This document shows, piece by piece, positions 2,419 to 47,076 of a stretch of 49,502 nt of DNA. The position numbers and the translations under genes are program-made. The notes under the pieces were generated by a model that saw nothing but the letters and a program-made list of their open reading frames with translations, was not told where the DNA came from and did no database searches. The DNA is from a virus, in the IMG/VR virus record IMGVR_UViG_3300042273_000055; one strand, 5' to 3'. Each line of letters starts with the position of its first letter. Within the stretch, counting starts at the first letter, position 1.

Positions 2419-2636
2419 ACCACTCTGCGGCTCCTGTTGGATTGAACTTGGCGGAATTGACTGCCGATGCTCGGGCGCTGATCGAAGCGGACAAGAAAGC
2501 GTGCTGGATCCGGTGGAAGTGTCGCGGCCTGCCGGAGAAGGAGAAGCAGAGGCTCGGGCCGCAGCTGCTGGCCGCTGTTCCGGAGAGTGCGCGACCTGCC
2601 GTTGTGCAAGCGCTGAAGGCGAGGGGGAGTAGATGA
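2415..2636 (+). CDS. Hypothetical protein
   Basis: The ATG at 2415 overlaps the upstream TGA. The reading frame is GC3-rich. Confidence 0.5.
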   Translation: MNHSAAPVGLNLAELTADARALIEADKKACWIRWKCRGLPEKEKQRLGPQLLAAVPESARPAVVQALKARGSR

Positions 2637-3106
2637 TCATCGGAATCGACCCTGGCTGCACTGGCGCCATCGTAGTGATGACCGAGAGCCGCAACTACGT
2701 GGCTCACCTCAACATGCCGACAATCAAGGTAGGCACGAAAAGCCGAGTGAACGGCGCCGCCGTCGCTGCCTTCCTGCGCGAGACGGTCGGGGAGTTCACC
2801 GCTCATGCCTATCTGGAGCAGGTCGGCGCCATGCCTGGCCAGGGCGTTTCCTCGATGTTCACCTTTGGCCATGCCGCTGGCGTGGTCGAGGGCATCCTGC
2901 AAGGAGCGTGCATCCCGTACACATTGGTCACCCCGCAAGCATGGAAGAAGAGAGCGGGCCTCATTGGGGCCGACAAGGATGCCGCACGCTCCCGCGCAAT
3001 CCAGCTCTACCCGGACCTCCGCATTCTCGACCTGAAAGGGAAGGGGCAAGCGGTGGCCGACGCCATTTTGATCGCCCGATTTGGGGATAAAGGGGAGGCA
3101 GCCTAA
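2633..3106 (+). CDS. RuvC-like Holliday-junction resolvase
   Basis: The N-terminal MIIGIDPGCTGAIVV is the RuvC/RNase H-fold signature. A C-terminal acidic residue sits in the AVADAILIA context. Confidence 0.8.
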   Translation: MIIGIDPGCTGAIVVMTESRNYVAHLNMPTIKVGTKSRVNGAAVAAFLRETVGEFTAHAYLEQVGAMPGQGVSSMFTFGHAAGVVEGILQGACIPYTLVTPQAWKKRAGLIGADKDAARSRAIQLYPDLRILDLKGKGQAVADAILIARFGDKGEAA

Positions 3107-4248
3107 TGGCCGCACGCAAAGCGACAGACGACGAAATCAAGGCCGCGCTGACGGGCCGTACTGTGGCAGAGGCTGCGCAGATCCTCGGGCTGCACGAGCG
3201 CAACGTCTACACCCACAAGGCGCGCCTGGCTCGGCAGGGATGGAGCCCGGAGCACGACATGACCAAGAGCGTGCCGGATGGCTTCCGCCTCAAGGGTACG
3301 TCGACCCTGTACGACGAAGACGGCAAGGCCAAGCTCCAGTGGGTCAAGACCACCATCGACCAAGAGCGCCAGGCTGAACTGATTCGTGAAGCGTGCCAGG
3401 CAATGTCTGAGGATCTGCCGCAGGTCGAGCCACGCAAGGCCGGCAATAGCTACCTGTCTCATCTGCTGGCTGCCTACCCGATCGGCGACGCCCACATCGG
3501 AATGCGCGCCTGGGGCGAGGAGACACAGGGCAGCGACTGGGACCTGTCCATTGCCGAGCGCGTTCAGTGTGGCGCTATGGCCGCCCTGGTCGATATGGCG
3601 CCGGCCTGTGAGCAAGCGCTGATCATCAACTGCGGCGACTGGTTCCATGCCGACAACATGGAAGGCACCACGAGCCGCTCCGGTCACATCCTGGACGTAG
3701 ACGGTCGCTACGCGAAGATGATCCGCGTTGGCGTGAAGGTGATGCGGCAGTGCATAGAGTCCGCCCTCATGAAGCACGCCCGGGTGCGCGTCTGCAACGT
3801 CATCGGCAACCACGACGACACTGGGGCCATCTGGCTGAGCATCGCCCTGAGCCACATCTACGCCAATGAGCCGCGCGTCCAGATCGACACCTCACCGGCG
3901 CCGTTCATGTATCACGAGCACGGCAAGGTGCTGATCGGGATGCACCACGGCCACTCCTGCAAGCCTGACCGCCTCCCCGGCGTAATGGCAACCGATCAGG
4001 CGCAGGCATGGGGCCGCACCGAGTTTCGCTACTGGTACATCGGCCACGTCCATCACCAGAGCGTCAAGGAGTACAGCGGCGTCACCGTCGAGTCCTTCAA
4101 CACCCTGACCGCCAAGGATGCCTACTCCGCATGGGGTGGCTACCGGGCTCAGCAGAACATGAAGTGCATCATCCATCACGCGGAGTTCGGCGAGGTCGGC
4201 CGGCACACGGTGAATCCGAACATGCTCAAGGGGGAGGTAGCAGCATGA
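3106..4248 (+). CDS. N-terminal HTH fused to a calcineurin-like metallophosphoesterase
   Basis: HTH: TVAEAAQILGLHERNVYTHKARL. MPE motifs: GDAHIG, GDWFHADN, GNHDD, GMHHGH, GHVHH. Confidence 0.8.
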   Translation: MAARKATDDEIKAALTGRTVAEAAQILGLHERNVYTHKARLARQGWSPEHDMTKSVPDGFRLKGTSTLYDEDGKAKLQWVKTTIDQERQAELIREACQAMSEDLPQVEPRKAGNSYLSHLLAAYPIGDAHIGMRAWGEETQGSDWDLSIAERVQCGAMAALVDMAPACEQALIINCGDWFHADNMEGTTSRSGHILDVDGRYAKMIRVGVKVMRQCIESALMKHARVRVCNVIGNHDDTGAIWLSIALSHIYANEPRVQIDTSPAPFMYHEHGKVLIGMHHGHSCKPDRLPGVMATDQAQAWGRTEFRYWYIGHVHHQSVKEYSGVTVESFNTLTAKDAYSAWGGYRAQQNMKCIIHHAEFGEVGRHTVNPNMLKGEVAA

Positions 4249-4790
4249 CCTATCGCAACGTGGTTTCCGCAGTAGTCCGAGCCCTGGCGTCGGAGGTGAT
4301 CAACTCGGCTGGTGGCTGTGACTTCCAACCGAAGGTGCAGGCCGCTCGTGTGCCGGGTGCGATCTGCGGCAAGGAAGAGGCGTTCCTGACTGACTGCTGG
4401 GTGTTCTCACGCCTGCACACGATGCTGAGCCCTGAGCACTGGCGCGCATTGGTAGCGCAGTATTCGACTCATGCAGACCGCAAGCGCATTGCCATCACTG
4501 AGCTGGTCGGCACGATCCAGTCCCCGGCGCCGGTTCGGTTCATCAACTGCTGTGTGGTGACGTGGGCCTATCCGAAGCTTCCGGGCGCAGAGGGCAAGCG
4601 GTCAACCAATGTGCTGCCGGCCGGGTGGTACAACATGGACAACTGGAGCGATGACCCGGTGCCTGTGAAAACGCAAGAGCGCTGGCGTCGTGACATCCGC
4701 AAGGGGCTGAAGCAGGCCGTTGACCAGGCGCTGATCGAGGCGCACGAGATCTTGGCTGCTGAGGGATTGGTGGCAGGCGAGGCGGCGTGA
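4245..4790 (+). CDS. Hypothetical protein. It is the last gene of the early-right operon and only a positional candidate for a late regulator.
   Basis: ATGA-coupled ORF of 181 aa with no motif I recognise. The suggestion rests on its position before a promoter-like site. Confidence 0.6.
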   Translation: MTYRNVVSAVVRALASEVINSAGGCDFQPKVQAARVPGAICGKEEAFLTDCWVFSRLHTMLSPEHWRALVAQYSTHADRKRIAITELVGTIQSPAPVRFINCCVVTWAYPKLPGAEGKRSTNVLPAGWYNMDNWSDDPVPVKTQERWRRDIRKGLKQAVDQALIEAHEILAAEGLVAGEAA

Positions 4791-4810
4791 AATAAATTTG
4801 CGAAAGGGTG

Positions 4811-4838
4811 TTGCGTTAGTTACCTAACGCTGTATACT
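4811..4838 (+). promoter_or_regulatory. Sigma70-like promoter: TTGCGT, 16-nt spacer, TATACT. A 7-bp inverted repeat GCGTTAG-N4-CTAACGC (4813-4830) lies in the spacer.
   Basis: Hexamers and palindrome read directly. The site lies in the only AT-richer gap after the 4245-4790 gene. Confidence 0.45.
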
Positions 4839-4902
4839 AACACCCATGGAAGCGAAACAGCCTCCACTGCATCCCCGGCAGCTTCCGGGTGAGGATTCAA
4901 CC

Positions 4903-5199
4903 ATGCGCACATTCAATGCACGTATCTACTCAGGCAAGGACGTTGTCGAGATCCGCGAGAATCTGTCAGCTAGCCAAGTCTGCGATTTTGCCCGCGAGGT
5001 TTCAGGGCGTGGCGTCGAAAAGAACACTTCGCTGCTGATTGAACAGCTCTGGAACGGCGAGAACGAGCAGCAGTATCTAGACCGCGAAATTCCAGGCGCA
5101 GTGGCAAGCGGGTTCGTATTTCGCGCCAATCATCTGCGTGCCGACTCGGTTGAAGACCGTTGCCAGGATTTCTCTGACGTGTTCGGTTGTGCGCAATGA
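4903..5199 (+). CDS. ORFan A (98 aa), first gene of the cassette
   Basis: ATG at 4903 preceded by GGTGAGGA. Lower-GC segment. No recognisable motif. Confidence 0.55.
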   Translation: MRTFNARIYSGKDVVEIRENLSASQVCDFAREVSGRGVEKNTSLLIEQLWNGENEQQYLDREIPGAVASGFVFRANHLRADSVEDRCQDFSDVFGCAQ

Positions 5200-5741
5200 G
5201 CGTCGGCACCCTGACACTGGTACAGGCCGCGATGTTCGCGGCCCTTGGCCAGCAAACCAAACTTAGCCGGTCCGGACACAGTATCGTTTTTGTAGAGCCT
5301 CAGTGCGGCCGGCATGACCTATCCGATGATGAGGGTCGCGCAACAGCGCAGGCGCGTAGTGCGGGGCTGAATATAGAGGCCATAACGCCTGAACAGGTCG
5401 AGGCATACCAGTCGTGGTACACCGCCATGTATGAGGCGCGCAGGATTGGCGAGGCGCGGATTCAGATCACTGCCCCCTACGTCATGCAGTACAGGAATGA
5501 GTTAGTTCCAGTAAATGGCGTTCGCCTGATCGATGGCTGGGGTTGCGTGGTTAGTTCGCGCGCTGTGCGTATGGAGATGTATTTAGACCCCGCCAGGAAG
5601 AATCGCATTGGCGAGCTAGGAGCGTACTGCCACCGCCCCGATTACGCAAAAATAACGGATCGCGTAAAGAAAATTCTTGCGAAACATCCTGAGTTCGAAA
5701 GTGCACGCATTCAAGACAACAACCATAGGGGCCGCAAGTGA
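5196..5741 (+). CDS. ORFan B (181 aa)
   Basis: ATGA overlap with ORFan A. No recognisable motif. Confidence 0.6.
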   Translation: MSVGTLTLVQAAMFAALGQQTKLSRSGHSIVFVEPQCGRHDLSDDEGRATAQARSAGLNIEAITPEQVEAYQSWYTAMYEARRIGEARIQITAPYVMQYRNELVPVNGVRLIDGWGCVVSSRAVRMEMYLDPARKNRIGELGAYCHRPDYAKITDRVKKILAKHPEFESARIQDNNHRGRK

Positions 5742-6154
5742 ACGAGAAGGAATTCAAGCAGCTGATGCTGAAGGCTAAGCAGATAGGCGGCGATTACGGT
5801 GCGGGTTATCAGCGAGGGTTGCGTCGCTGCTACCACGGCGAGCAGTTCGGCACTGCTGCCGAGCATGAGACGTGGATGACCATGAGCGGACATCGTCAGG
5901 AGCAGGGCGACGGCTACCGTGACGGGTTCGCTGGATTGAAACCGAATGCAAGCTGGTCGCCGAAAACCACGGCTGAGCGTGTAGCTGAGCACGATGCCAG
6001 GCTGGTGAGCAATGGGGGGCGCAAGCTCAGCGGGATTCGTCTAACGCCAGATGCTGCTGCTGCGCTAGCTGATCTGGAGGCGGCCGGAGAGTCTGCCACC
6101 GCAGCGATAAACAGGCTGCTCACGGAAAGCCTAGCGTCATGCAAAGGTAGTTGA
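5738..6154 (+). CDS. ORFan C (138 aa) with a C-terminal ribbon-helix-helix-like segment
   Basis: GTG start overlaps the upstream TGA. The C-terminus LSGIRLTPDAAAALADLEAAGESATAAINRLL fits a strand-helix-helix RHH pattern. Confidence 0.6.
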   Translation: MNEKEFKQLMLKAKQIGGDYGAGYQRGLRRCYHGEQFGTAAEHETWMTMSGHRQEQGDGYRDGFAGLKPNASWSPKTTAERVAEHDARLVSNGGRKLSGIRLTPDAAAALADLEAAGESATAAINRLLTESLASCKGS

Positions 6155-6179
6155 CACGAATGAGCTAGTGAGCCATTCT
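6151..6179 (+). promoter_or_regulatory. Candidate promoter: consensus TTGACA (6151-6156), 17 nt, CATTCT (6174-6179)
   Basis: Perfect -35 hexamer and a -10 with the conserved A2 and T6. About 125 nt downstream is a strong terminator. Confidence 0.4.
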
Positions 6180-6283
6180 ATGCCTATCTTGGTCATTTCA
6201 CGCGTTGAGATGGCCGAGACAGCCCTACGACCGCCCAGCGCCGGCATGACCTGCGCGCCAACAGGCTAGGGCACCAATCCAAG

Positions 6284-6311
6284 AGCCCTGACTTCGGTCG
6301 GGGCTTTTTTA
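6284..6311 (+). terminator. Rho-independent terminator (8-bp stem, UUCG loop, T6)
   Basis: GCCCTGAC-TTCG-GTCGGGGC followed by TTTTTT. Confidence 0.8.
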
Positions 6312-6553
6312 TTCCCATCGAATTCGATGTGTTTGCGCGAACGGCTGATTAGGGCTCGACCACCCGGCGCCCAATTCAATACATCCGCCATGCCTCTGAT
6401 CATTTTCCTGGCGTCACGCAAATGATCATGCACAAATCGCGCGGATTTTCATTCGCCTCACGGCAACCCTCTTCCGGCCCCATGCCTGCCTCCTTGCCCC
6501 GAGCGGATCGCACGCGCATGTGAGGCCGGACCAAACACCAACGAGACTCCACT

Positions 6554-6868
6554 ATGACCGACAGCCATGAGGGCAGGACAGTGCATGAGCGAGTCGGCGC
6601 CCTGGAGCAAGAGGCAGCCGTAACCCGGCATCGCCTGGACAGATTCGACCGCGACCACGCGCAGTCACCCAACCGCCTCACCAAGCTCGAGCAGCAGTTC
6701 GAGCACATGACCCGCCAGCTCACCGCAATCGGAGAGAGCCAGGACGAGGTAGCCGGGAAGGTGGACACACTGAGCAACAAGCTCACCTATGGGATTGGCG
6801 CCGGCGTGGTGATGGTTGCTGTGTTCGACAAGCTGTGGCCGTTCCTGGCTAAGGGGTTTGGCTCATGA
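6554..6868 (+). CDS. XhlA-like coiled-coil protein with a C-terminal TM (holin-associated type)
   Basis: Long N-terminal coiled coil, then the hydrophobic GIGAGVVMVAVFDKLWPFL. Confidence 0.55.
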   Translation: MTDSHEGRTVHERVGALEQEAAVTRHRLDRFDRDHAQSPNRLTKLEQQFEHMTRQLTAIGESQDEVAGKVDTLSNKLTYGIGAGVVMVAVFDKLWPFLAKGFGS

Positions 6869-7080
6869 ACATGATCCCCGAATGGCGCAAGTGCTGGCGT
6901 CTGACCAGTGTGCAGCTCGCCATCCTGACTGCCGTGCTCAACGCAGCAGCCGGTGCATGGGTAGCGTTCGAAGGCCACATTAGCCCGATCGCATGGGCAA
7001 GCGTGAACATGGTCCTCGGCGTGGCAATGGCTATCGCCCGTGTGGTGTCGCAGCCGAAGGTGACTGGAGAGCAGAAGTGA
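6865..7080 (+). CDS. Putative holin (2 TM, 71 aa)
   Basis: MIPEWRKCWRLTSVQLAILTAVLNAAAGAWVAF...VNMVLGVAMAIARVV. ATGA-coupled. Confidence 0.6.
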   Translation: MNMIPEWRKCWRLTSVQLAILTAVLNAAAGAWVAFEGHISPIAWASVNMVLGVAMAIARVVSQPKVTGEQK

Positions 7081-7298
7081 AGCAGCAGCCTCCATGGGTA
7101 CACACGCCAGAAGACGGCCGCGGCGTCCGCAAGGTGCTCATTGATGGGCAAGAGATCAAGATGGCCGTTTTCGTCGACGAGCGGCGCGGCATCGTTGATC
7201 GCTATCGCCAGCCGTTCACTATCGATAAACGCAGCCAGTCCTTGATCACTGAGCGCCTACACGGTCGCGTGGAGGTTGTATGGCAAACGTCCAGCTAG
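7077..7298 (+). CDS. Hypothetical protein (GTG start)
   Basis: The GTG at 7077 overlaps the holin TGA. 73 aa. Confidence 0.45.
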   Translation: MKQQPPWVHTPEDGRGVRKVLIDGQEIKMAVFVDERRGIVDRYRQPFTIDKRSQSLITERLHGRVEVVWQTSS

Positions 7299-7447
7299 TG
7301 GCCGTCGTCAAGATTCGCTGGTGGCTGCGCCTGTATATCGCCGGAGTGGTTGCAGCCTATCGCATCACTGGACTTGACCCAGATTGGCAAAAGGTCAGTC
7401 AGTGGATTCGGCGCGGCACAGTGATTCGCTTTAAGGCGGCACAGTGA
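7280..7447 (+). CDS. Small 1-TM protein (55 aa, below the track cutoff)
   Basis: My own translation is MANVQLVAVVKIRWWLRLYIAGVVAAY... The stop overlaps the next start. Confidence 0.4.
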   Translation: MANVQLVAVVKIRWWLRLYIAGVVAAYRITGLDPDWQKVSQWIRRGTVIRFKAAQ

Positions 7448-7656
7448 AACGCCTCCACGCCGCCCTGATCCTGATATGCCTCGCAGCCTGTGTCGCTGTG
7501 ATGATCGGGAAAGAGGTGTTGGTGTATTGGCGCAGACAACATCGCAAGGCAGATAAACGGGAAAGGGTGAAGGCGAATGACGACCATCGCTTACAAAGAC
7601 GGCGTAATCGCATACGACTCACGCCAGACCCGAGGCAGCTCGATCGTCTCGGATAA
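7444..7656 (+). CDS. Small signal-anchor or lipoprotein-like protein (LAAC lipobox-like)
   Basis: MKRLHAALILICLAACVAV followed by a basic tail. It overlaps the next gene by 80 nt, which lowers confidence. Confidence 0.35.
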   Translation: MKRLHAALILICLAACVAVMIGKEVLVYWRRQHRKADKRERVKANDDHRLQRRRNRIRLTPDPRQLDRLG

Positions 7657-8023
7657 CAGCGTTAAGTGCCAGGTAGTTGATGGCGTCAGCTTCTTCCTGT
7701 CCGGCGCCGTCTGCGACGAGAAGGCCCTGATCGCGGCCTACTTTGGCACGCCACCATCCGCGCCAGTCGAATGCTCCGGCTTCGTGGTAGACGACAACGT
7801 GCTGATGATGGTCGGCGTTGACGACAATACTGGTGTCTGGAAGCAGCCGCTAGATCCGGCGAACCCTGACGCCATCGGCAGTGGATCGGCATACGCCCTG
7901 GCCGCGATGGATATGGGAGCAACCGCCGAAGAGGCCGTCCGCGCCGCCATGAAGCGCGACGTATACACGGGCGGAACAATCCGCACGTTCACCATTGGCC
8001 AGGAGGCTGGTCTGGCGGTGTAA
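7577..8023 (+). CDS. HslV/proteasome-beta-like Ntn-hydrolase peptidase (148 aa)
   Basis: The N-terminus is MTTIAYKDGVIAYDS, against E. coli HslV MTTIVSVRRNGHVVIAGDG. AIGSGSAYALAAM..A..AV..AMKRDVYTGG resembles AIGSGGPYAQAAA...DICIYT. Confidence 0.75.
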   Translation: MTTIAYKDGVIAYDSRQTRGSSIVSDNSVKCQVVDGVSFFLSGAVCDEKALIAAYFGTPPSAPVECSGFVVDDNVLMMVGVDDNTGVWKQPLDPANPDAIGSGSAYALAAMDMGATAEEAVRAAMKRDVYTGGTIRTFTIGQEAGLAV

Positions 8024-26800: not shown

Positions 26801-27379
26801 AACGCGGCCCGGCTGTTAATCGAGGAGCAGACCCGCGCCTCTGCTGACTCGGCTCTGTCACAGCAGATCACAACGCTTACCGCAACGGTTGGGGATAACT
26901 CGGCAGCAATTCAGACGACGCAGCAGACGGTTGCCAGCCTGAATGGCGATCTGTCCGCGATGTACTCGGTGAAGCTGCAGCTGACCCAGGATGGCAAGTA
27001 CTACGCCGCCGGCATGGGCATCGGCATCGAGAACACGCCGCAAGGCATGCAATCGCAGGTCCTGTTCCAGGCTGACCGGTTCGCAGTGATCAACACCGCC
27101 AATGGCGTAATCACCTCTCCGTTCGTTATTCAGGGAGGCCAGGTGTTCATCAACTCGGCGGTGATCGGAGACGGCACCATCACCATGGCGAAGATCAGCG
27201 GCGCCATCCAGTCAGACAACTACGTGGAGGGCATGAGCGGGTGGAGGCTTACTAGGGCAGGGGATTTCGAGATCAACGGAAGTGTGGCCGGGCAAGGAAG
27301 AGTGAAGATTACCAACCAGTTGGTTGAGGTCTTCGACTCGAACGGCGTGAGACGTGTTCGATTGGGGATATGGGCATGA
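23810..27379 (+). CDS. Host-specificity / central tail fibre protein (lambda gpJ-like)
   Basis: 1189 aa. The N-terminus KGGSSKPRTPKESPDSL..SIAYARLIDLISEGEI is gpJ-like. Confidence 0.93.
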   Translation: MTAMIKGAKGGSSKPRTPKESPDSLVSIAYARLIDLISEGEIYGLVNGAASIYLDETPASTSGGSSFSGFSWEQRTGSQDQPYLAGFPQVENEISIGVELQASTPWVRSVTNSDLSAVRINFSVPRLAKQNASNGDTTGYRVDYAIDVAIGLGAYQEVLTGAFNGKTTGGYERSVRIDLPEGSGGWRVRVRRLTPNSTSSAIADTVNIKSFTEIIDAKFRYPNSAIVGVSFDAETFGGSVPRRGYHARGRIIRVPSNYSPETRTYTGIWDGTFQLAYSNNPAWIYYDLLLHPRYGLGDRIDASQVDKWGLYQIGQYCDQLVSDGKGGQEPRFVCNLYLQKRADAYKALQDIAAVFRGITYWGAGQAIVSSDMPADPVYTYTNANVKNGKFSYKGSKRSTRYSAVLVGWNDPSDMYRRKVEYVQDDDAIARFGVQTTEITALGCTSQGQAQRAGRWALLTNLLETETVTFSVGLDGIRARPGQIIRVADNARAGRRIGGRLSAATTTVVTVDKVEGVQSGDELTCILPSGVAQTRSIVAVDGHQLTVAPAFDAAPVAQSVWAWESTSLAAQRYRIVSIAESGPLEYAITASKYVEGKHAAVDSGAIISQRPITAIPSSVQAAPQNIRAISDWMIEQTLAVTTMTILWDAAPGATRYDVEWKRGDGAWVYAGRVGGTEIDVVGIYAGTYQIRVRALNSLDVVSPWGYSEAIDLAGKAGTPPAVAFLNAVPEVFGIRLEWGFPAGAEDTLRTEIQYGSAQSEQDALHLGDYAYPANTHTMTGLAAGVTFWFRARLIDRTGNIGPWSDWVMGQSSADATAILEYITGQISETELGQNLLARINLIDGDGPGSVNDRIRELADAIEYSPNNAYLAGDSVRDGQRLYQAKIDVPADPDGANAPPNATYWLDIGQVVQSANGLALQVEQNTASLELLDGKVTAAASSLEVLQATWRDDDGEGELADALRGWQTQAQYAQEVKTRASQSEASVERDTLLGADLASNAARLLIEEQTRASADSALSQQITTLTATVGDNSAAIQTTQQTVASLNGDLSAMYSVKLQLTQDGKYYAAGMGIGIENTPQGMQSQVLFQADRFAVINTANGVITSPFVIQGGQVFINSAVIGDGTITMAKISGAIQSDNYVEGMSGWRLTRAGDFEINGSVAGQGRVKITNQLVEVFDSNGVRRVRLGIWA

Positions 27380-27684
27380 GTCAGGGACTGCAGGTTTGGG
27401 ACGACAGTGGAAACCTTGTATTTTCCGATGAGTTCTTTGCAATTAGGATACTAGGCAGTATTACAACCGGCGTGTCAAATGGGTCAATTTACATACCGGA
27501 ACTAGCAGAGGATCCGTCACCTGCGTTCGTATTTTCAACAGAAGCTCCAGCCAATCTATCAGTTTTTACTATAACCCCTGATGTTTCCGTGTCGGGGGCA
27601 ACAATTTCCTGGGTCTTCAACGCTTCGTCTACTGGGATATTTAAAAGAGTCTCTATGAAGGTTTATTACGGGGTGTCTGCGTGA
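27376..27684 (+). CDS. Post-J hypothetical protein 1 (low GC)
   Basis: ATGA overlap with the J-like gene. The N-terminal motif GLQVWDDSGNLVFSDEF is shared with the next ORF. Confidence 0.55.
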   Translation: MSQGLQVWDDSGNLVFSDEFFAIRILGSITTGVSNGSIYIPELAEDPSPAFVFSTEAPANLSVFTITPDVSVSGATISWVFNASSTGIFKRVSMKVYYGVSA

Positions 27685-28358
27685 TGGCTGGCCTTGAAGT
27701 CACTAGGGACAACGGCTCAATCTTACTGTCAGATGAGTACGTGTCTACGGTTCTTATGACTACCCTTATTGCCAGCCAGTGGTCAAACGGCGAGGCCATA
27801 ACCTCTCAGGTTAAAACGGCTAACTACTGCGACATATATATCCCATTAGAAGCTGGTATTTTGGCCTTTGAGGATACAGCTGGATTTTATGTTTGTGCTA
27901 TATATGGTGAGCAAGTAGGGGAAAGTAGAAGGGTCAGGCTCTATTGTTCAGGTAAGCCATCAATTAAGCTCCATTGTTTTGGCACCGTGCTACCTTCAGC
28001 TCGTGGTGATTATGGTCTCCAGTTGTTCAAGCAGGATGGCAGCCTGGCCTTCGACTCCTCTCATAAACATATTAGGGTCAAAACAAACGTACTGTCGTCC
28101 GGCGGGTCGGTATCACTACCAAACGACGGAGTATACGGGGTGGCCGTCGGAAGTTTTCCGTACTCTTATGGGGTATATGTTGGGTCGGTAGGGTATGGGT
28201 ACACTTTCTTCAGAGTTGGGGTGAGGGTTAGAGGTGGGATAGACGCCTCTTTTTCTAATGTACTGGTGGCCGCCAGCGGACAGCAGCCTAACATCGGACC
28301 TACGCCGGCCGGCGGTGGGGGGGCATCGTTTTCAGTGATGGCGATGAAAATCGCATGA
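27681..28358 (+). CDS. Post-J hypothetical protein 2 (low GC)
   Basis: Contains GLEVTRDNGSILLSDEY and GLQLFKQDGSLAFDSS repeats of the same motif. There is a G7 tract at 28317-28323. Confidence 0.6.
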   Translation: MMAGLEVTRDNGSILLSDEYVSTVLMTTLIASQWSNGEAITSQVKTANYCDIYIPLEAGILAFEDTAGFYVCAIYGEQVGESRRVRLYCSGKPSIKLHCFGTVLPSARGDYGLQLFKQDGSLAFDSSHKHIRVKTNVLSSGGSVSLPNDGVYGVAVGSFPYSYGVYVGSVGYGYTFFRVGVRVRGGIDASFSNVLVAASGQQPNIGPTPAGGGGASFSVMAMKIA

Positions 28359-28403
28359 ACTTTGTTATCATTAACCCATATTTGCAGGAATGCTTATACC
28401 ATT

Positions 28404-28574
28404 ATGGCAGCCGCAACCAACTTCCCCGAATTCAACGCCGCCGTCATCAACCAGGCCGACATCGTGAACCTGATCGTGACTGGGGAGTTGCGGTCGGGGA
28501 ACTTGGGTGGACTGGGTGGGATAATTGGGGGCCTGGCTATTACCGTAGATTCGGTGGACCGCCTCCGACAATAA
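28404..28574 (+). CDS. Short ORF (56 aa), possibly a remnant of another fibre gene
   Basis: Third-position GC is high only in its first half (GCC GCC GTC ATC AAC CAG GCC GAC ATC GTG AAC CTG). The RBS is weak. Confidence 0.3.
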   Translation: MAAATNFPEFNAAVINQADIVNLIVTGELRSGNLGGLGGIIGGLAITVDSVDRLRQ

Positions 28575-28632
28575 TTTTCATTGACACGTCAAGCATTTGA
28601 AACCTGATAGTTAAAGTCTAATGGAGAACCTC

Positions 28633-29457
28633 ATGCCCTGGTACAGCACCGGCACCGTATCCGTAACAAACAACAGCGCCACGGTCACCGGAACTGGCAC
28701 GGCGTTCTCAGCCAACGCCCGCACCGGCGATGCGATACGCCTCGTCGATGGGCGCTGGTACGAAATCACCAATATCGCCAGCGCGACCGTGCTGTCGATT
28801 AAGCCCAACTATCAGGGCGCAACCGCTAGCGGGCAGACGTACGCCATCGCGCCGATGCAGGGCTATGTCAAGGAGTCGGCTGACCGGCTGCGGCAGCTTG
28901 TAGATCAGTTCGGGTCGCAGCTCGCGGCACTTCAGCCTTGGGCGACATCAGCGACACCGGCAGCTGCGCGTGAGGCGCTTGGCACCAACGACGCAGCGAA
29001 CCTGACGGCTGGCCTGCTCAATGTTGAGCGTATTCCTGCGACGCTCACGCCTGATAAAGCGTTCAGGCGCGGCAACATCCTCGGCACCGTCTCCCAATCC
29101 GGCGGCGTGCCCACGGGCGCGATCATCGAGCGCGGCAGTAATGCCAATGGGGAGTACATCAGATGGGCGGACGGGACGCAGATTTGCAGCCGCTTTGTGA
29201 CGTATGCGGCTTGGCCATTCTCCGGTACAGAAGGGGCTGTGTACTCGCGATCTCCCGAGGGGGCTATTCCGTATCCTGCCCCATTCATAGCCCCGCCTTT
29301 TGTCGCTTCCAGTTGTGTCGGCTCTGGCTCTGGCGTGTGGTCTCCGTTGTCCGGCGCCACGACTACGACCGAGTGGCCAGTCCAGCGGCTTTATGCAGCC
29401 TCCCCGGCCGAGCAAGCCCTGATGATATCAACCATCGCGGTCGGCCGCTGGTTCTAA
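28633..29457 (+). CDS. Tail fibre protein
   Basis: The N-terminus MPWYSTGTVSVTNNSATVTGTGTAF and C-terminus NGEYIRWADGTQICS...AVGRWF are typical of fibre tip domains. A GGAG RBS lies 6 nt upstream. Confidence 0.8.
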   Translation: MPWYSTGTVSVTNNSATVTGTGTAFSANARTGDAIRLVDGRWYEITNIASATVLSIKPNYQGATASGQTYAIAPMQGYVKESADRLRQLVDQFGSQLAALQPWATSATPAAAREALGTNDAANLTAGLLNVERIPATLTPDKAFRRGNILGTVSQSGGVPTGAIIERGSNANGEYIRWADGTQICSRFVTYAAWPFSGTEGAVYSRSPEGAIPYPAPFIAPPFVASSCVGSGSGVWSPLSGATTTTEWPVQRLYAASPAEQALMISTIAVGRWF

Positions 29458-31646: not shown

Positions 31647-31856
31647 TTATTGAGCGTCCAGAGCGGGGCTAACAAGGTCCGCCTCGGAATCTATCCAGCC
31701 GGATGGGCTGCCGGTCTTGCCGCTGCGCAGATACGGCCTGAACCCGTCGCTGGGAATCCAAAAGTCCCATACCGTATCGCAGATCTTTATCACTGGCCCG
31801 ACAATACGGCCATCCCGTCGAGCGTAGTAGCGGCCATGCTCAAGTTGAATGCTCAT
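31647..31856 (-). CDS. Hypothetical protein between int and attP
   Basis: 69 aa. ATGA-coupled to the integrase stop. Confidence 0.5.
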   Translation of the reverse strand: MSIQLEHGRYYARRDGRIVGPVIKICDTVWDFWIPSDGFRPYLRSGKTGSPSGWIDSEADLVSPALDAQ

Positions 31857-33025
31857 GCTGACTCCTCATTAGGGATTTGAACCGGCGTCCCGAACAGCTC
31901 CGCCGCCTTGCTGCCCGACGTGTCGCCATCGTTCGGAATGTATCGGCCATAGACGCGGGCGATCATCACCCAACTACTGTGCCCCATTTGTTTTGCTACC
32001 CACATTGGATGCTCGCCCGCTGACAGCATCATCGATGCGTAAGTGTGTCGGGTCTGGTACGGGTTACGGTACCGCACCTTTGCCTTACGGATGGTCGGAA
32101 TCCAGAATGACTTCCGGATAGCTTGGTCGCCGTCAAAGGGTTTGCCGTATCGCGGATCATGGAAGACCGGCCCGCCGACTATATAGGTGTGTGCCTTCTG
32201 CTCTTCGAGCGCGGCCAGCGCCATCGGCAGCAGCTTCACATCCCGCAAACCTGCCGCCGTCTTCGGCAGTTCCGCCTCCTTGGCCGCCTTGGTCAGCCCC
32301 CGGCTAATCCTTGCCTCCCCCCGAAGCCAGTCAATATCCCCCCATTCCAACGCGACCAATTCCGACGTGCGAAGCCCGGTCCAGAACGCGAACTGCAACA
32401 GGTTCCGGTATTGCCCTGACGCTGCCGCCAGGATTGCCGCCTGTTCCTCCTTCGTGAACGGGTCGATCTCGTCTTCCGCCTTGGGCTTGCCCTTTACTGA
32501 GTAGGTCCAGCCAGCCAGCGGGTTCGATTCGATCAACTCATCATCTACAGCATCATTGAGCGCCGACCGCAGGCAGCTTTGCACGTTGGCGAGCCGCTTG
32601 TTCGAGGCGTCCATATTGGCCAGCTCATCTCGCACCATCTTGCGCGTAAGCGTCACCAGTGGCGCATGGCCCAGCCTCGGCACCAGTACGCCGCTGATGA
32701 TCTTGCGGTAGCCGTCCAGGGTCGACGCCTTCAGATGCGCCTCCTTTCGGGCCAGCCACTTGTCGAGATAGTCGGAGAGGGGAATCAGCCCGGTCTGATG
32801 CCCGAGCTTTACAGCGCGCTTTGACTTGGGGAAAGTCGCCGCGTAGTCGAAGGTTCCGTTGTAGATGGCAAGCTCTACCGCTGCCTTGTGCTTCTCGGCG
32901 CGCTTTAGATTAGCGGGGGTGGGCTCAAGTGGGAGACGTTCGCGGCACTGCGCCCCCTCATACATGAAACTGATTTCAATGCTGGACGTCGACGCGCGCC
33001 GGACTCCATTCCGCTTTCCACCCAT
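31853..33025 (-). CDS. int: Tyrosine integrase
   Basis: N-terminal arm-binding motif (GVRRASTSSIEISFMYEGAQCRE). Catalytic region: GLRTSELVAL, HTYASMM, GHSSWVMIARVYGRYI. Confidence 0.93.
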   Translation of the reverse strand: MGGKRNGVRRASTSSIEISFMYEGAQCRERLPLEPTPANLKRAEKHKAAVELAIYNGTFDYAATFPKSKRAVKLGHQTGLIPLSDYLDKWLARKEAHLKASTLDGYRKIISGVLVPRLGHAPLVTLTRKMVRDELANMDASNKRLANVQSCLRSALNDAVDDELIESNPLAGWTYSVKGKPKAEDEIDPFTKEEQAAILAAASGQYRNLLQFAFWTGLRTSELVALEWGDIDWLRGEARISRGLTKAAKEAELPKTAAGLRDVKLLPMALAALEEQKAHTYIVGGPVFHDPRYGKPFDGDQAIRKSFWIPTIRKAKVRYRNPYQTRHTYASMMLSAGEHPMWVAKQMGHSSWVMIARVYGRYIPNDGDTSGSKAAELFGTPVQIPNEESA

Positions 33026-33441: not shown

Positions 33442-34137
33442 CTAGTGCCTGACTGGCTCGAGTGTGTGAAGGTCCAGCAGCGTGAAGCGCCCGGACGGAT
33501 GCCAGCCGGCCGTATCGATGTGCAGCACGTTGCCCAGCTTCACCGGGCCGCTCGGTAGTGGCGTGTGGCCTACGACTAGGGCCAGAATGTCAGGCACTCC
33601 CGACTCGTCGTCATCTTCCATGCGCTTGCGCGACCACATACAGCTGTTCTTGACCAGCTTCAGGCGCTTCGGTGATTCCGGCTCTGTCAGTTCCGCTACC
33701 ATTTGCGCCCAAGTCGCGGTCGGGCAGTCGGCGTGAACGATGCCAACCAGGCCGGCGTCCGTCTCCAGCTCAATGGCTATCGGCAGCTCGCGGAACTGCA
33801 CGGCGTGCTCGGCCTGCTCGTCGCTGTTGAGCGAGAGGAACCAGCCGCCACCATTGATGAGCCAGTTGCCCAGCTCGCAGCTGTCGTAGCGGCAAACGTA
33901 GTCGTCGTGATTGCCGCGCACCGGGTGGAACCAAGGCTTGGCCAGCCACTCCAGCGCCATCTCGCATTCCGGCCCTCGGTCTACCAAATCACCGACCGAG
34001 AACAGCCGATCGACTGCCGGGTCAAAGTAGATCCCTTCCAGCGCCTGCTGCAGCTTCGTGAAGCATCCGTGAATGTCGCCCACGGCAAAGTCCCGGCCCG
34101 CCGTGTTCTTGGCGAACCGTTTGATGAGTTCGGGCAT
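33442..34137 (-). CDS. Ser/Thr protein phosphatase, lambda PP (NinI)-like
   Basis: GDIHGC, GDLVDRGP and GNHDD motifs in the canonical order. Confidence 0.9.
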   Translation of the reverse strand: MPELIKRFAKNTAGRDFAVGDIHGCFTKLQQALEGIYFDPAVDRLFSVGDLVDRGPECEMALEWLAKPWFHPVRGNHDDYVCRYDSCELGNWLINGGGWFLSLNSDEQAEHAVQFRELPIAIELETDAGLVGIVHADCPTATWAQMVAELTEPESPKRLKLVKNSCMWSRKRMEDDDESGVPDILALVVGHTPLPSGPVKLGNVLHIDTAGWHPSGRFTLLDLHTLEPVRH

Positions 34138-35855: not shown

Positions 35856-38366
35856 TCATGCCGCCTCGTCGCCGAGAACGCTGAACAGATCGGGCATGGC
35901 CATCTCCTTTTCTGCCGCTTGCAGGTACTGCACGCCGTCAAAGAAGTAGCCGGTGTTCAGCTCGCTGGCGCTACCTTTGCGGCCCTTCATCACGGCGCGA
36001 TAGGGGACGGTCATGAGCCCGCCAAACGGGTCGTGCACCAATTCGCCTGGATTGCTGTAGCGCTCGATCAGCCGGTCAACGATGTCGATCTGCAGGGGGC
36101 AAACGTGGTTTTGCAAACCCTTCTGCGTCTGCTTGCCGTTGAGCGTGATCATCCGGTTCACGTCATGCCACACGTCACTGTCGTGGCTTCCTGGCGCCAG
36201 GCTCATGAAAGTGGACGGCAGTGCGCCGCGGGCCTCCAGTTCCTCGCCGATCTTGATGTGGAACTCGTAGTCGTAGACGTTCTGCAGGCTGTATTCGGTG
36301 AATGCCTTGGCCAGCTTGTCCGGGCCAAGCGTGGCGAGCTCGTCGGCTGTCAGCTGGCGGTTGCCGCTGCTGCGCCAGAACGCGTGCGCATCCACCTGCC
36401 AGCGTGCGCGGGTGTAGTCGGCCTTATCCTTGCGCACCGGCTCGTCGGCATAGCCCTTGGAGCGGTCTGTCTGCGGCTTGCGCAGCAGCAAGATGTACTC
36501 AGGCGAGCCGACACCCATCTTCGTGCCGTCCTTACACTGCTCCGACCAGCCGAGCCGGTAAGTCTGGTTGTTCTCGCGCACTACATCGGTCACGACCGTG
36601 ATCATGCCCATGTAGTCGAAGCCGTGTTTCATGGCGTGGAATGCGGCTTCCATGTGGAACGGGGAAACGGTCGGTGCACCTGCGCCAGTCACGTTGCCGA
36701 ACAGAATGCGATCCTTGACGTGGCAGCAGTACATGCGCCCCGGCTTCAGCACGCGCTTCAGTTCAGGCGTCAGGAAGTCCATCTGCTGCCAAAAGTGATT
36801 GTTGTTCTCGGTGTGCCCGAAGTCGTTGTAGCTGGGCGTGTACTCGTAGTGGTTGGCGAACGGGATGCTGGTGACGATAAGGTCAACGGAGTTTTCCGCC
36901 ATGCTCTGCGCTTCCAGAACGCAGTCATTGTTCGCCACGCGGTAGTTTTCGCCACGCACTTCCAGGCGTTCAACGCCGATGGTGCGCGCCAGAATGTCGG
37001 CCATGCTCAGGTGATTAAGGCCGTGCTCTTTGATGATTGCCGTCATGGTTTCCACCATCTCCGTATGTTGGCGCCACTTATCCATGAGGGTGCGCAGAAC
37101 CTCGCGCTCGGCCTCGGAATGGATGATGTGAATCTCCACCGGCTGCGCCTGTAGAAAGCGCTGGATGCGGTGGATCGCCTGGATGAAATCGTTGAACTTG
37201 AAGCCAATGCCGACAAAGATCGCCTTGTGGCAATGGCGCTGGAAGTTACAGCCGCTGCCGGCTATGACCGGCTTGGCGGAAAGGTACTTGAACTTGCCGT
37301 CGCTGAAATCGACGATGGCCTGTTCGCGGGCGTCCAGGTCTTGCGAGCCGTAGACGCTAACCGCCTCCGGTACCGCTTTCTGGATAGCGTGGCGCTCGTC
37401 TTCGAGGTCATGCCAGAGGATGTAGTGGCTTTCGGGATCGTCGCGCAGGATTTGCGCCATCTTCTCGACGCGCGCTGGCAGGCTGTCGCGCTTTTCGCCG
37501 CTCGCCTGGCTGACTCCTAGGCTGACGTTCTTGAACAACAGCGCCTGGCCGTCCTTTTCTTCGCCGGCCGCGCTGTGGTCGCTCTGCACCTCGTGAAATA
37601 CAACCTCTAGCGGCGGCAGGTCGTAACCCTCGTCACTGAAGCCGAGGTCGGAAGGCCGCTGCAGGAAGATTGCCCAGCTATTCAGCCATAGCCAGAACTC
37701 GCGCTCCTTATGCGGATAGAGCGTCAGGTTGTTGGCCTTGGTGCTGTCGCGCTGGAAGAACCGCGTCAGGGCCTGCCCGGTATCCATGATCCCGAGAAAT
37801 CCGGCGTAGTGGATCAGTTCCTTGTAGCGGTTCGGACTAGGCGTGGCGGTGGCGACGAACCGGTACCGGACGGAGCTGAACAGGTCAAGGAAGGTCTGAT
37901 AGGTCTTACTGCCGAAACTGCGTAGCACGCTCGCCTCGTCAAGGCTGACGGCGGTGAACAGGTTCGGGTCCAGCTTGCCATCACGCACAGACTCATAGTT
38001 GGTCAGGTAAAAATCCTGGCCTTCCTCGAACTCGTCGGCGCTGCGGATGAACTTGAATTCAACGCCAAGCATCAGGCCGTCTCGGCGAAACTCCTGGCGA
38101 ACGCCAAGCGGGCAAACGATCAGCACCTTTCCGCCTGCGCGCTCGTGAACCAGGCGAAGCGTCTCGATCTGCATAACCGACTTACCCAAGCCGAACGCCG
38201 CGAACATGGCGCGATTTCCGCCGCGCACCGCCCATTTTACGATGGCCCGCTGGTGAGGCTTGAGGATTGGATTGATATCGCTGTCTTCGACTTCGAATCC
38301 GCCGAAGTCGGCCAGCTTGATCTTGCCGCGCAGGAAGTCGTGATATGCGGCGATGTTCGGCGTCAT
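35856..38366 (-). CDS. Fusion of an SNF2/DEAD-like helicase and a beta-class N6A/N4C DNA methyltransferase
   Basis: Helicase: AFGLGKS (motif I), LDEASVLRS (II), QAIHRIQR (VI). MTase: DLIVTSIPF (motif IV-like), then VHDPFGGLMT (motif I). ATG at 38366 with a GGAGAAGC RBS. Confidence 0.88.
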   Translation of the reverse strand: MTPNIAAYHDFLRGKIKLADFGGFEVEDSDINPILKPHQRAIVKWAVRGGNRAMFAAFGLGKSVMQIETLRLVHERAGGKVLIVCPLGVRQEFRRDGLMLGVEFKFIRSADEFEEGQDFYLTNYESVRDGKLDPNLFTAVSLDEASVLRSFGSKTYQTFLDLFSSVRYRFVATATPSPNRYKELIHYAGFLGIMDTGQALTRFFQRDSTKANNLTLYPHKEREFWLWLNSWAIFLQRPSDLGFSDEGYDLPPLEVVFHEVQSDHSAAGEEKDGQALLFKNVSLGVSQASGEKRDSLPARVEKMAQILRDDPESHYILWHDLEDERHAIQKAVPEAVSVYGSQDLDAREQAIVDFSDGKFKYLSAKPVIAGSGCNFQRHCHKAIFVGIGFKFNDFIQAIHRIQRFLQAQPVEIHIIHSEAEREVLRTLMDKWRQHTEMVETMTAIIKEHGLNHLSMADILARTIGVERLEVRGENYRVANNDCVLEAQSMAENSVDLIVTSIPFANHYEYTPSYNDFGHTENNNHFWQQMDFLTPELKRVLKPGRMYCCHVKDRILFGNVTGAGAPTVSPFHMEAAFHAMKHGFDYMGMITVVTDVVRENNQTYRLGWSEQCKDGTKMGVGSPEYILLLRKPQTDRSKGYADEPVRKDKADYTRARWQVDAHAFWRSSGNRQLTADELATLGPDKLAKAFTEYSLQNVYDYEFHIKIGEELEARGALPSTFMSLAPGSHDSDVWHDVNRMITLNGKQTQKGLQNHVCPLQIDIVDRLIERYSNPGELVHDPFGGLMTVPYRAVMKGRKGSASELNTGYFFDGVQYLQAAEKEMAMPDLFSVLGDEAA

Positions 38367-38427
38367 GATGCTTCTCCAGGCAATACGCCGCCTGGCCGCG
38401 ATTGCAGCCGGTGGCAAAGTGGTTGGG

Positions 38428-44901: not shown

Positions 44902-45627
44902 TCAGCCGAGTGCGCCACCGCGCCAGATCACTCTGCCGATGATAGGTACATCGTGCATTGATGCCGGAGAGACTTCCTCGTCCGGGTAGCGCGCTTTGTC
45001 TGGGTTGTCGCTGCGAATCAGCCAATTGCCAGATATCTGCTGAGCCATTCGCTTGATGCTTATGCTGCCGTCTGGTCGCCGGATCGCATACACCTGGCGG
45101 TCACGCGGAATGGTGTCTGCGCTATCGAACAGCACTACGTCACCGTCGAATATGAACGGCTCCATGCTGCTGCCGCTGGCGTAGATGACGAACAGATGCT
45201 GGGGTTTGGCGCCCATTCGGCGCAGCCAGTCCCTCTTGAATGCCAGGCCGCCGTTGACCTCAACATGATCGTTCAGCAGGCCTTCGCCGCAATGCCCCTG
45301 CGCGCTGTACTGCGGGATGAGGGCGTAGTCGTCGGAGCTGGGGGATTGGCCAGTATTGGGCGAGGCTGGCTGGTCGCCCACTGAAAGCATCGAGCCTTCG
45401 CCGTACTGAAGCCATTCGATGCGGACTTTCAATGCGGACGCTATAGCCTTCATGTTCTCGCGGCCCGGCATCGTCTCGGCGTTAAGCCATTTACTCGCGG
45501 CCTTCGCTGTCTTGCCCGTAATTTCGGAAAGGCGAGCGCCGGCGCCCCACTCAGGAATTCCCATTTCTGAAAGGGCTTTCTTGAGGCGGCTGGCGAATTC
45601 GGTGCGTAAATCTTGTGATTGAACCAT
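44902..45627 (-). CDS. cI: CI-type repressor (N-terminal HTH + S24 LexA-like peptidase domain)
   Basis: HTH: [21 protein letters not shown]24: ASGSSMEP...SIKRM. I placed the start at MVQSQD (45627) because the 45699 start would leave no room for promoters. Confidence 0.88.
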
Positions 45628-45647
45628 CCGTTCATGTTCGCACTTGC

Positions 45648-45677
45648 TTGCATGAACATTCAGTTCCGGCTTAACAT
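45648..45677 (+). promoter_or_regulatory. PR-type promoter: TTGCAT, 18 nt, TAACAT
   Basis: Hexamers read directly. Operators overlap the spacer and the start region. Confidence 0.5.
45653..45667. promoter_or_regulatory. OR operator candidate TGAACATTCAGTTCC
   Basis: Matches TGAAC-N5-GTTCA at 14 of 15 positions of the palindrome frame. Confidence 0.5.
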
Positions 45678-45691
45678 GTACCGTAAGTACA
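45677..45691. promoter_or_regulatory. OR operator candidate TGTACCGTAAGTACA
   Basis: A perfect TGTAC-N5-GTACA. It shares TGNACCGT..GTNCA with OL. Confidence 0.5.
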
Positions 45692-45713
45692 GAATTCATA
45701 GCCGGAGGCCTCC

Positions 45714-46566: not shown

Positions 46567-47076
46567 ATGAAGAAGCAGCTGACGTACGAAAGAGCACACG
46601 AGCTTTACCAGTACATGGACGGCGTCCTAGTCAACAAGATCGGAAGGCAGCGAGCCCCTAAGGGCGCTGTAGTCGGTACTCCTGACGGGAATGGCTACCT
46701 GATTGCGATGGCGGATGGCGTACGGATCAAGGTGCATCGGATTGTTTGGCTGATGCACTACGGGTCATGGCCAGCCAAGGCAATCGATCACGTAAACGGC
46801 GACCGCTCAGACAACCGAATCGAGAACCTGCGTGACGTAGACCAGCTGGAGAACAGCCGGAACCAGCAGCGGCGATCCACAAACAGCTCTGGGGTCACTG
46901 GTGTTTTTTGGAACTACATCCACCGGAAGTGGCAGGCAAGCATTTCCGTGGAAGGAAAGAAGATTTTCCTAGGCCGGTTTAGCGACATCTGCGCAGCCGA
47001 GAAGGCTAGGAAAGATGCAGAAGCAAAGTACGGGTTTCACCCGAACCACGGCAGAAATCCAGTTCCAAGGCAATAA
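46567..47076 (+). CDS. HNH (HNH_3) + AP2-domain homing endonuclease
   Basis: IDHVNGDRSDNRIENLR (HNH) and SGVTGVFWNYIHRKWQASISVEGKKIFLGRF (AP2-like). Confidence 0.85.
   Translation: MKKQLTYERAHELYQYMDGVLVNKIGRQRAPKGAVVGTPDGNGYLIAMADGVRIKVHRIVWLMHYGSWPAKAIDHVNGDRSDNRIENLRDVDQLENSRNQQRRSTNSSGVTGVFWNYIHRKWQASISVEGKKIFLGRFSDICAAEKARKDAEAKYGFHPNHGRNPVPRQ

Follow-up and report, generated by a model that had tools for sequence, protein, structure and literature searches.

Morons between Q and the lysis genes of lambdoid phages are well established, as are the accessory hotspots of P2-type phages, and classical morons bring their own terminator with them. The regulator genes associated with anti-CRISPR genes (aca and acr, respectively) have already been used as bait for the discovery of anti-defence genes, and in the bifunctional protein AcrIF25 the DNA-binding module is reportedly exchangeable between homologues, being either a ribbon-helix-helix (RHH) or a helix-turn-helix (HTH) domain. 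Among the described regulators, Aca14 is an RHH protein which regulates acr-aca operons (Feussner et al., bioRxiv 10.64898/2026.07.27.740549), Aca1 and Aca2 bind hairpins in 5′ untranslated regions (5′-UTRs) (cited in bioRxiv 10.64898/2026.07.27.740549), and AcrIE10 is a fusion of an RHH domain and an Acr which represses its own promoter (PMC13530269). Here we compare with these systems a three-gene cassette found in IMG/VR virus record IMGVR_UViG_3300042273_000055, a stretch of 49,502 nucleotides (nt) which we refer to in its full length as the window, and with it the related loci which we number L002–L067. Judged by where its copies lie, the cassette is horizontally mobile, and we give a probability of roughly one half to the reading that it is an acr-aca-type accessory cassette which is mobile and represses itself.

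Operator types and the ORF3 regulator family

On reading the sequence, the three open reading frames (ORFs) lie where an earlier, sequence-only reading had placed them (ORF1, 4903–5199; ORF2, 5196–5741; ORF3, 5738–6154), with tight overlaps of 4 nt each, ATGA between ORF1 and ORF2 and GTGA between ORF2 and ORF3 (see Table 1 for the coordinates of other features). The sigma-70-type promoter described ahead of them is present, with transcription expected to start near A4846, and is backed by its conservation in at least ten related loci as well as by consensus-like promoters at the same position in more distant cassettes (L014, L011, L013, L061 and L063). In a P2-like prophage (L010) 27/28 positions of the promoter are identical, where the coding DNA is only 72–76% identical. 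The palindrome had been described as lying in the promoter spacer, and while the inverted repeat is indeed perfect, it also covers four bases of the −35 hexamer and is not confined to the spacer. We estimate the chance of finding a 7+7 palindrome in a 100-nt intergenic stretch to be about 7%, and we attach significance to this one because of the comparative data and not because of the repeat by itself.

Across the loci compared we found four types of DNA-binding domain, each with its own promoter palindrome, and this covariation of operator and domain is the strongest result of our analysis. The window-type operator has invariant arms around a 4-nt centre of TTAC, ATAA, TTAA or TTAT (L006, L007, L010, L016, L017, L036, L044 and L055). 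A relative of the ORF3 C-terminal module (57–65% identical) which forms a stand-alone gene of 66 amino acids (aa) in L022 is accompanied by two cognate CGTTGG-N4-CCAACG operators, in which the same position is altered in both arms, and by the same TTGCGT −35 hexamer as in the window. The CopG-like type (L014) has the promoter TTGACG-N17-TATAAT with the palindrome TTATTG-N6-CAATAA, and the NikA-like type (L011, L013, L061, L063 and L024) has palindromes of the TTGTTTG-N6-CAAACAA type over a consensus TTGACA −35 hexamer. Such a pattern would be expected of a dimeric repressor bound to its own promoter; it strongly supports the earlier suggestion that the last protein of the cassette is a DNA-binding autoregulator, and we consider it probable that ORF3 represses its own promoter. 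When a second operator was sought across the 49.5-kb window, only the site at 4813 and one match with three mismatches, consistent with chance, were found. The stand-alone gene is located on the P. monteilii plasmid pSTW0522-72-1, a phage-plasmid, in the region 3870–4190 after a P2-type gpD and before a Rha-family regulator. In copies of the cassette from IMG/VR and metagenomes (L018 and L054) one operator arm has changed from CTAACGC to CTAACTC and ORF3 is 95% identical, and these may be partly derepressed copies.

The ORF3 N-terminal domain is highly conserved, with 23 residues retained in at least 90% of the 38 sequences aligned, and is predicted by AlphaFold to form four helices with predicted local distance difference test (pLDDT) scores of 93–97 (90.6 for the whole ORF3 model), yet it has no match in Pfam, in the PDB or by Foldseek. 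The C-terminus is predicted to consist of a strand (100–102) and two helices (104–115 and 120–136), with block-mean pLDDT scores of 76–92, and this strand-helix-helix order is the RHH topology. Among relatives of ORF3 the C-terminal DNA-binding domain is exchanged, as judged by Pfam matches, between at least four RHH types and HTH domains (NikA-like RHH in eight, TacA1 in four, CopG antitoxin in two, HicB in two and RHH_10 in one, or HTH). We tentatively assign the C-terminus of the window ORF3 to the RHH class because of the AlphaFold prediction and because its position matches that of the RHH domains of the relatives. A profile of the ORF3 family matched no PDB chain significantly, and the PDB is expected to hold several Aca structures. 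A relationship between the N-terminal domain and RMF was considered on account of its GYxxG motifs and of a neighbouring gene in L011, and was rejected (hhalign probability 0.2%); the neighbour is an RMF-family (PF04957) gene at 4395–4574 of that phage contig, directly downstream of the ORF3 homologue.

ORF3-family genes are also found without ORF2 (L011, L013, L061, L063 and L064), often beside orphan C5 methylases, and here the small upstream genes encode proteins of 60 aa (pI 4.3), of 74 and 86 aa (pI 4.2 for the latter), of a 106–113-aa family and of ~107 aa. At least eight unrelated partner genes were seen beside the family, and ten partner proteins taken from related loci matched nothing in the family libraries. 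This agrees with the earlier description of the cassette as acr-aca-like in architecture, as in the related loci a conserved regulator is preceded by small genes which vary. Partner genes of ORF3-family regulators were noted at L061 3681–4004, L062 2446–3078, L063 3688–4008 and L064 2715–3056. Among the partners seen are a pentapeptide-repeat protein (some members of this class are DNA mimics), a possibly ADP-ribosyltransferase-like small protein whose sequence starts with MKMYHSTS.., and the conserved 106–113-aa family, which adjoins C5 methylases and HNH genes.

Variable cargo, a conserved leader and the insertion site

The three proteins had been called ORFans, a description which no longer holds as homologues were found for each of them among 5.8 billion clustered proteins, with three for ORF1 (plus one, 49% identical, in L010), 17 for ORF2 by word search and 88 cluster representatives by exhaustive profile search, and 37 for ORF3. 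Apart from an RHH-like tail in the third, the earlier reading had seen no recognisable motif in them, and no Pfam, PHROG, NCBIfam or PADLOC family matched any of them. Sequence and profile searches of the PDB with ORF1, ORF2, ORF3 and the ORF3 C-terminus returned only chance matches (vanillyl-alcohol oxidase, adenosylhomocysteinase and AcrIF25, the last with E = 0.26). The structure comparisons proposed earlier have now been made with AlphaFold models and Foldseek, for ORF2 against the PDB and BFVD and for ORF3 against the PDB, with no significant structural match.

The position of ORF1 is, by comparison of the loci, a slot exchanged among unrelated proteins. The ORF1 type is found in the window, L007, L017 and L018 and, in the diverged version already mentioned, in L010; it is replaced by an unrelated 76-aa protein in L006 and L014, by an unrelated protein of ~140 aa (138–143) in L067, and by a 262-aa protein in L008 and L052. 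The first two of these types are acidic (pI 4.6–4.8).

ORF2 is the conserved member of the cargo and includes DGWG and (Q)DNN among its invariant residues. It is modelled with confidence (pLDDT 93.8, predicted template-modelling score 0.79) as a helical N-terminal part followed by a beta-rich C-terminal part, and the exhaustive search found the two halves as separate proteins too. The best Foldseek match to the model in the PDB had E 0.13 with template-modelling (TM) scores of at most 0.32, and BFVD was also without a significant match; faint echoes of RNase-H-like cores (glycerol kinase, the Argonaute PIWI domain and endonuclease V) at TM ~0.3 are far below significance. A Pfam scan of ORF2 with 83 relatives (84 sequences) found no shared domain. 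Some plasmids and contigs (L002/L003, L005, L008 and L023) bear ORF2 by itself, with intergenic regions of its own and lacking any ORF3-type gene. They include a Ralstonia plasmid as well as a Shinella plasmid, where ORF2 is located between partition genes and a relaxase, with a methylase and a gene for ArdB-type antirestriction ~3 kb away.

The 27-nt core of the leader is identical (27/27) in the window and in L014, where the DNA encoding ORF2 and the ORF3 N-terminal domain is only 63% identical and where, despite the identical leader, the promoter is unrelated. A hairpin of the leader type is found 12–16 nt before the first start codon in 13/13 loci examined, with compensatory variants of the stem in only two of them (CCCGA/TCGGG in L011 and GCCGG/CCGGC in L063). 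No Rfam family matched the leader region, and species-representative genomes, when scanned for exact matches to the leader pattern, had none. We considered whether the ATG at 4846 might be the start of a 117-aa ORF1 or of an upstream ORF, and rejected this as the frame and stop differ and it is the nucleotides which are conserved (L010, L014 and L067).

Copies of the cassette occur in several settings. The promoter, leader, ORF2 and ORF3 recur in a mosaic lambdoid phage whose structural genes differ, where they fill the same slot (L006/L016), a copy follows gpD in a P2-like prophage (L010 and L044), others have integrases and convergent lysis genes as neighbours (L014 and L067), and a contig copy (L007) adjoins a Tn3-type mercury transposon and a fragment of a umuC-like gene (DUF4113). 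The L067 copy (2568–3907) is from a chromosomal prophage of Halopseudomonas formosensis and has the same type of leader hairpin, followed by the unrelated first gene and by homologues of ORF2 (49% identity) and ORF3. No match to ORF2 or ORF3 was obtained by tblastn against 50,697 GenBank phages, the ORF2 motif we used was found in only 2/185,579 species-representative genomes, and a literature search with the locus tags of the homologues found nothing.

The window is a temperate phage genome of ~61% GC which also encodes terminase, portal and tail genes, and its closest relative in GenBank is Pseudomonas phage PS-1. Homology to PS-1 ends with the phrog_3412 gene and restarts exactly at 6181 at 93% identity, and we place the cassette proper between about 4795–4811 and about 6155–6180. 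The earlier remark that it is less GC-rich and has less GC-biased third codon positions was borne out, with 56.6% GC in the cassette compared with 61.3% in the window (only 5% of windows of cassette size are equally GC-poor) and a third-position GC content (GC3) of 0.60–0.64 compared with 0.72–0.85 in 13 backbone genes. With its own promoter and operator, its lower GC3 and its absence from PS-1, the cassette can be regarded, as proposed, as a foreign unit which is self-contained at its 5′ end.

The same is not true of the 3′ end, which had been thought to be closed by a terminator of the cassette. The hairpin and U-tract are real and would be the first terminator met by cassette transcripts, but they are located ~130 nt past the ORF3 stop and beyond a 35-nt box which PS-1, without the cassette, still carries and which L006 also has. 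In PS-1 and L006 this box is followed by a variable stretch, a differently sequenced intrinsic terminator and then conserved DNA. As PS-1 has a terminator at the equivalent place without having the cassette, we assign the terminator to the phage backbone; cassette copies elsewhere (L007, L010 and L014) have no such terminator. A consensus scanner run over 4000–8000 called neither the promoter nor the terminator. The region 6181–6560 has in each phage the box, a variable 70–170 nt, a terminator of differing sequence and then the conserved GCGCGAACGGCT..AGGGCTCGACCACCCGGCGC, and may be a backbone late-control region which resembles pR′-6S-tR′ of lambda, downstream of the gene in the Q position. 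Rfam gave only a sub-threshold match over the region searched, to the abiF RNA motif (6384–6446, + strand; 29.5 bits against a gathering score of 37, E 0.01), in an intergenic part of the backbone ahead of the lysis genes.

The cassette is located, in agreement with the Q-lysis hotspot suggested earlier, between the phrog_3412 gene and the holin gene. Homologues of phrog_3412 occupy the same Q-like position in D3, JBD44, F10, MR15 and PS-1, and a search of the PDB with the protein gave no informative match. The comparison of relatives which had been called for shows that the interval is variable between conserved flanks: D3 has tRNAs there together with small ORFs, JBD44 a small gene in reverse orientation and PS-1 an HNH endonuclease in the cassette slot, and as the contents of the interval differ in D3, JBD44, MR15 and PS-1 we regard the slot as a variable hotspot. 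The window has an HNH endonuclease of its own at 46567–47076. Elsewhere in the window we note an 853-aa helicase with methyltransferase-like matches (35856–38417, − strand) and a NinI-like phosphatase (33442–34137, − strand). The lowest-GC stretch of the whole window (0.49–0.51) is at 27000–28600, which covers two ORFs (27370–27684, phrog_2427, and 27681–28358, phrog_4062) just upstream of a tail-fibre gene (28621–29457), and may be another acquired module.

Table 1. Coordinates of the cassette features and of neighbouring and other genes in the window.
Feature	Position	Strand	Remarks
Sigma-70-type promoter, from sequence reading	4811–4838	+	TTGCGT (4811–4816)-N16-TATACT (4833–4838)
Putative operator	4813–4830	.	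Perfect inverted repeat GCGTTAG-TTAC-CTAACGC; overlaps −35 and spacer
5′-UTR core	4864–4890	+	CCACTGCATCCCCGGCAGCTTCCGGGT, 27 nt; more conserved than coding DNA
Leader hairpin	4874–4889		CCCGG-CAGCTT-CCGGG; directly 5′ of Shine-Dalgarno GAGGA (4891–4895)
ORF1	4903–5199	+	98 aa, acidic (pI 4.8); variable cargo slot
ORF2	5196–5741	+	181 aa, basic (pI 9.2); conserved cargo protein, undescribed family
ORF3 N-terminal domain	5738–5947	+	aa 1–70, four helices; motif GGDYxAGYQRGLRRHYHGExFGT...GDGYRDGFAG
ORF3 C-terminal domain	6014–6154	+	~aa 93–138, RHH-like; putative operator-binding module
Backbone box	6181–6215	+	TGCCTATCTTGGTCATTTCACGCGTTGAGATGGCC, 35 nt; right-hand end of insertion; common to PS-1 and L006
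Intrinsic terminator	6281–6314	+	UUCG loop and U-tract; −19.4 kcal/mol, z = −3.7 (folding)
phrog_3412 gene	4245–4790		Upstream neighbour of cassette; last early-right gene, Q-like position
Lysis genes	6554–7080		Downstream of cassette
Integrase	31853–33025	−	Window ORF
CI-like S24 repressor	44902–45699	−	Window ORF

Described systems and rival explanations

The cassette resembles the Aca14-regulated acr-aca operons in architecture. In both, small variable genes follow an inverted-repeat promoter and the last gene encodes a dimeric RHH-type repressor (putative in the cassette), one regulator type is found with many different upstream genes, and both occur on phages, prophages and plasmids. As in acr-aca operons, the regulator gene comes last in a short, mobile operon of small genes and the inverted repeat in the promoter is specific to the regulator type, but no validated Acr or anti-defence gene was found in the cassette or linked to it with the general libraries searched. 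The cassette also differs in the additional, highly conserved 70-aa N-terminal domain of ORF3, and in having the operator over the −35 and spacer and not over the −10. The accessory defence or anti-defence role suggested by the sequence-only reading has this architecture in its favour, and no link to any validated anti-defence or defence gene was found.

The architecture of ORF3 itself is closest to that of the bifunctional Acr-Aca fusions (AcrIE10, AcrIF25 and AcrIIA1), without detectable homology: in each a conserved domain of another kind is fused to a small DNA-binding module (putative in ORF3), which through an inverted repeat represses, or in ORF3 would repress, the promoter of its own gene and which is exchangeable between homologues as in AcrIF25. 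However, the order of domains is reversed, with the putative DNA-binding domain of ORF3 being C-terminal, and no similarity of sequence or fold was found (the AcrIF25 match covers the RHH only and there is no Foldseek match). The leader is like the RNA targets of Aca1 and Aca2 in being a conserved hairpin by the ribosome-binding site which is more conserved than the genes following it, and differs from them in that it is also present in loci with no ORF3-type gene, has only two compensatory changes and has no Rfam entry. Like the morons of lambdoid and P2 phages, the cassette is compositionally deviant, appears to be independently transcribed from its own promoter, lies between conserved modules at a variable site and is absent from a close relative; unlike them it borrows the terminator of the backbone, and its cargo families are undescribed. 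Finally, toxin-first type II toxin-antitoxin systems such as HicAB and BrnTA share with it the order of effector and regulator with overlapping stop and start codons, a regulator made of an N-terminal domain and a C-terminal RHH, and an operator in the promoter. They differ in that the link between ORF2 and ORF3 is not an obligate one, no toxin fold was matched by ORF2, and the cassette has a variable third gene upstream.

In the working model we favour, DNA would enter a cell which has no ORF3, and host RNA polymerase would fire the cassette promoter to give a transcript with the conserved structured leader and three translationally coupled genes. The cargo would be ORF1, acidic and exchangeable, and ORF2, basic and with no detectable structural neighbour, and would most likely counteract a host immune system. 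ORF3 would then build up, dimerise through its RHH-like C-terminal domain and bind GCGTTAG-N4-CTAACGC across the −35 and spacer, turning the promoter down. The N-terminal domain of ORF3 may act as another effector or serve to sense a partner, as in the bifunctional Acr-Aca proteins, and the leader hairpin beside the ribosome-binding site probably adds post-transcriptional control. The counter-defence function, argued by analogy, is the part of this model we hold more tentatively, at slightly under even odds. A bolder form of it seems doubtful, though worth stating: the cassettes might be an undescribed family of counter-defence elements among the temperate phages and plasmids of Proteobacteria, with a bifunctional ORF3 whose four-helix domain would act on a host target or on the leader RNA and whose RHH or HTH module would read the matching operator, with ORF2 as an inhibitor of new fold, and with the first gene slot as a rapidly exchanged library of small acidic inhibitors.

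A number of points weigh against the acr-aca-type reading. The −35 hexamer is poor, matching the consensus at 3/6 positions. The RHH tail which the sequence-only reading saw in the third ORF has the AlphaFold topology and the RHH domains found at the same place in relatives in its favour, but the C-terminus of the window ORF3 has no Pfam match, a profile search of the PDB was negative and hhalign gave a probability of just 0.5% against the RHH C-termini of relatives. ORF2, being basic and 181 aa long, exceeds the typical size of an Acr, and could be a nucleic-acid-binding protein with another role. None of the three proteins has sequence or structural similarity to known anti-defence inhibitors in Pfam, PHROG, NCBIfam, the PDB or by Foldseek, a comparison made with these general libraries and with no dedicated anti-defence hidden Markov model library. 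The leader hairpin also occurs where there is no ORF3-type gene nearby (L005 and L008), and the prophage sites by integrases or lysis genes and the lower GC would fit defence morons expressed in lysogeny equally well.

Such a moron for defence or superinfection exclusion, or else a toxin-first toxin-antitoxin or abortive-infection module, is the rival which survives best, and we think it unlikely. ORF2 would be the effector or toxin, and ORF3 would be both antitoxin and repressor, with neutralisation by its N-terminal domain and an RHH at its C-terminus (cf. HicB, BrnA and MqsA). The temperate nature of the phage, with its integrase and CI-like repressor, would suit this explanation, as would the cassette having its own promoter at known moron sites (Q-lysis, after gpD of P2 and beside int), the 4-nt overlap of ORF2 and ORF3, and the matches of C-termini of ORF3 relatives to antitoxin-type RHH models (TacA1, CopG_antitoxin and HicB); promiscuous antitoxin domains which pair with many toxins also exist (PanA). 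However, it is made less likely by the lack of linkage between ORF2 and ORF3, each of which occurs without the other in the loci listed above, by the ORF2 model matching no toxin or nuclease fold (Foldseek against the PDB and BFVD, none at E < 0.04), and by PADLOC-DB 2.0 giving 0 matches for the three proteins at E up to 1. In addition, the upstream partners are mostly tiny and highly acidic, a description which fits inhibitors more typically than it does toxins.

Ranked next, and again improbable, is an autoregulated accessory operon in which the cargo serves the establishment of the element or the manipulation of host physiology and not immunity; ORF2 could for example be a nucleic-acid-binding factor in DNA entry, replication, recombination or host gene expression. 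The basic pI of ORF2, its location on plasmids among partition and transfer genes and the lack of any tie of the three proteins to immune components are in line with this, and the only fold echoes of ORF2 are RNase-H-like cores. These echoes, however, are far below significance, the hypervariable first gene and the many small acidic partners of ORF3 suggest an arms race over housekeeping, and the family is extremely rare in the species-representative genomes. That the ORFs are simply conserved early (nin-type) or late genes of the lineage, with the palindrome and promoter arising by chance, is most improbable, for despite being oriented like the flanking operons with no terminator between them and the upstream gene, and despite no promoter being called by the consensus scanner, the reading as core or nin genes which would have told against the earlier proposal is contradicted: the cassette is not found in PS-1 nor in any GenBank phage, it occurs in unrelated phage types and non-phage contexts, conservation is higher in its promoter and operator than in the coding DNA, and its GC3 is deviant.

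Implications for anti-defence gene discovery

An autoregulated accessory operon of the acr-aca type is a known kind of system, and it is the regulator family, the ORF2 family and fold, and the leader which are undescribed in the libraries searched. If the acr-aca-type reading is correct, then the combination of a conserved N-terminal domain with exchangeable RHH or HTH domains would represent a new regulator family which could be used as bait for anti-defence genes, and under the bolder form of the reading the ORF3 N-terminal domain, the ORF2 family and the leader hairpin would all be new anchor markers for guilt-by-association discovery. ORF2 would then be of interest as a confidently folded 181-aa protein without a structural neighbour in the PDB or BFVD, and with the leader element the control of anti-defence operons through both DNA and RNA, described only recently, would be extended to a new family. 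Should the cargo turn out to have some other role, the natural series of operators and DNA-binding domains would still provide a ready system for the study of RHH specificity.

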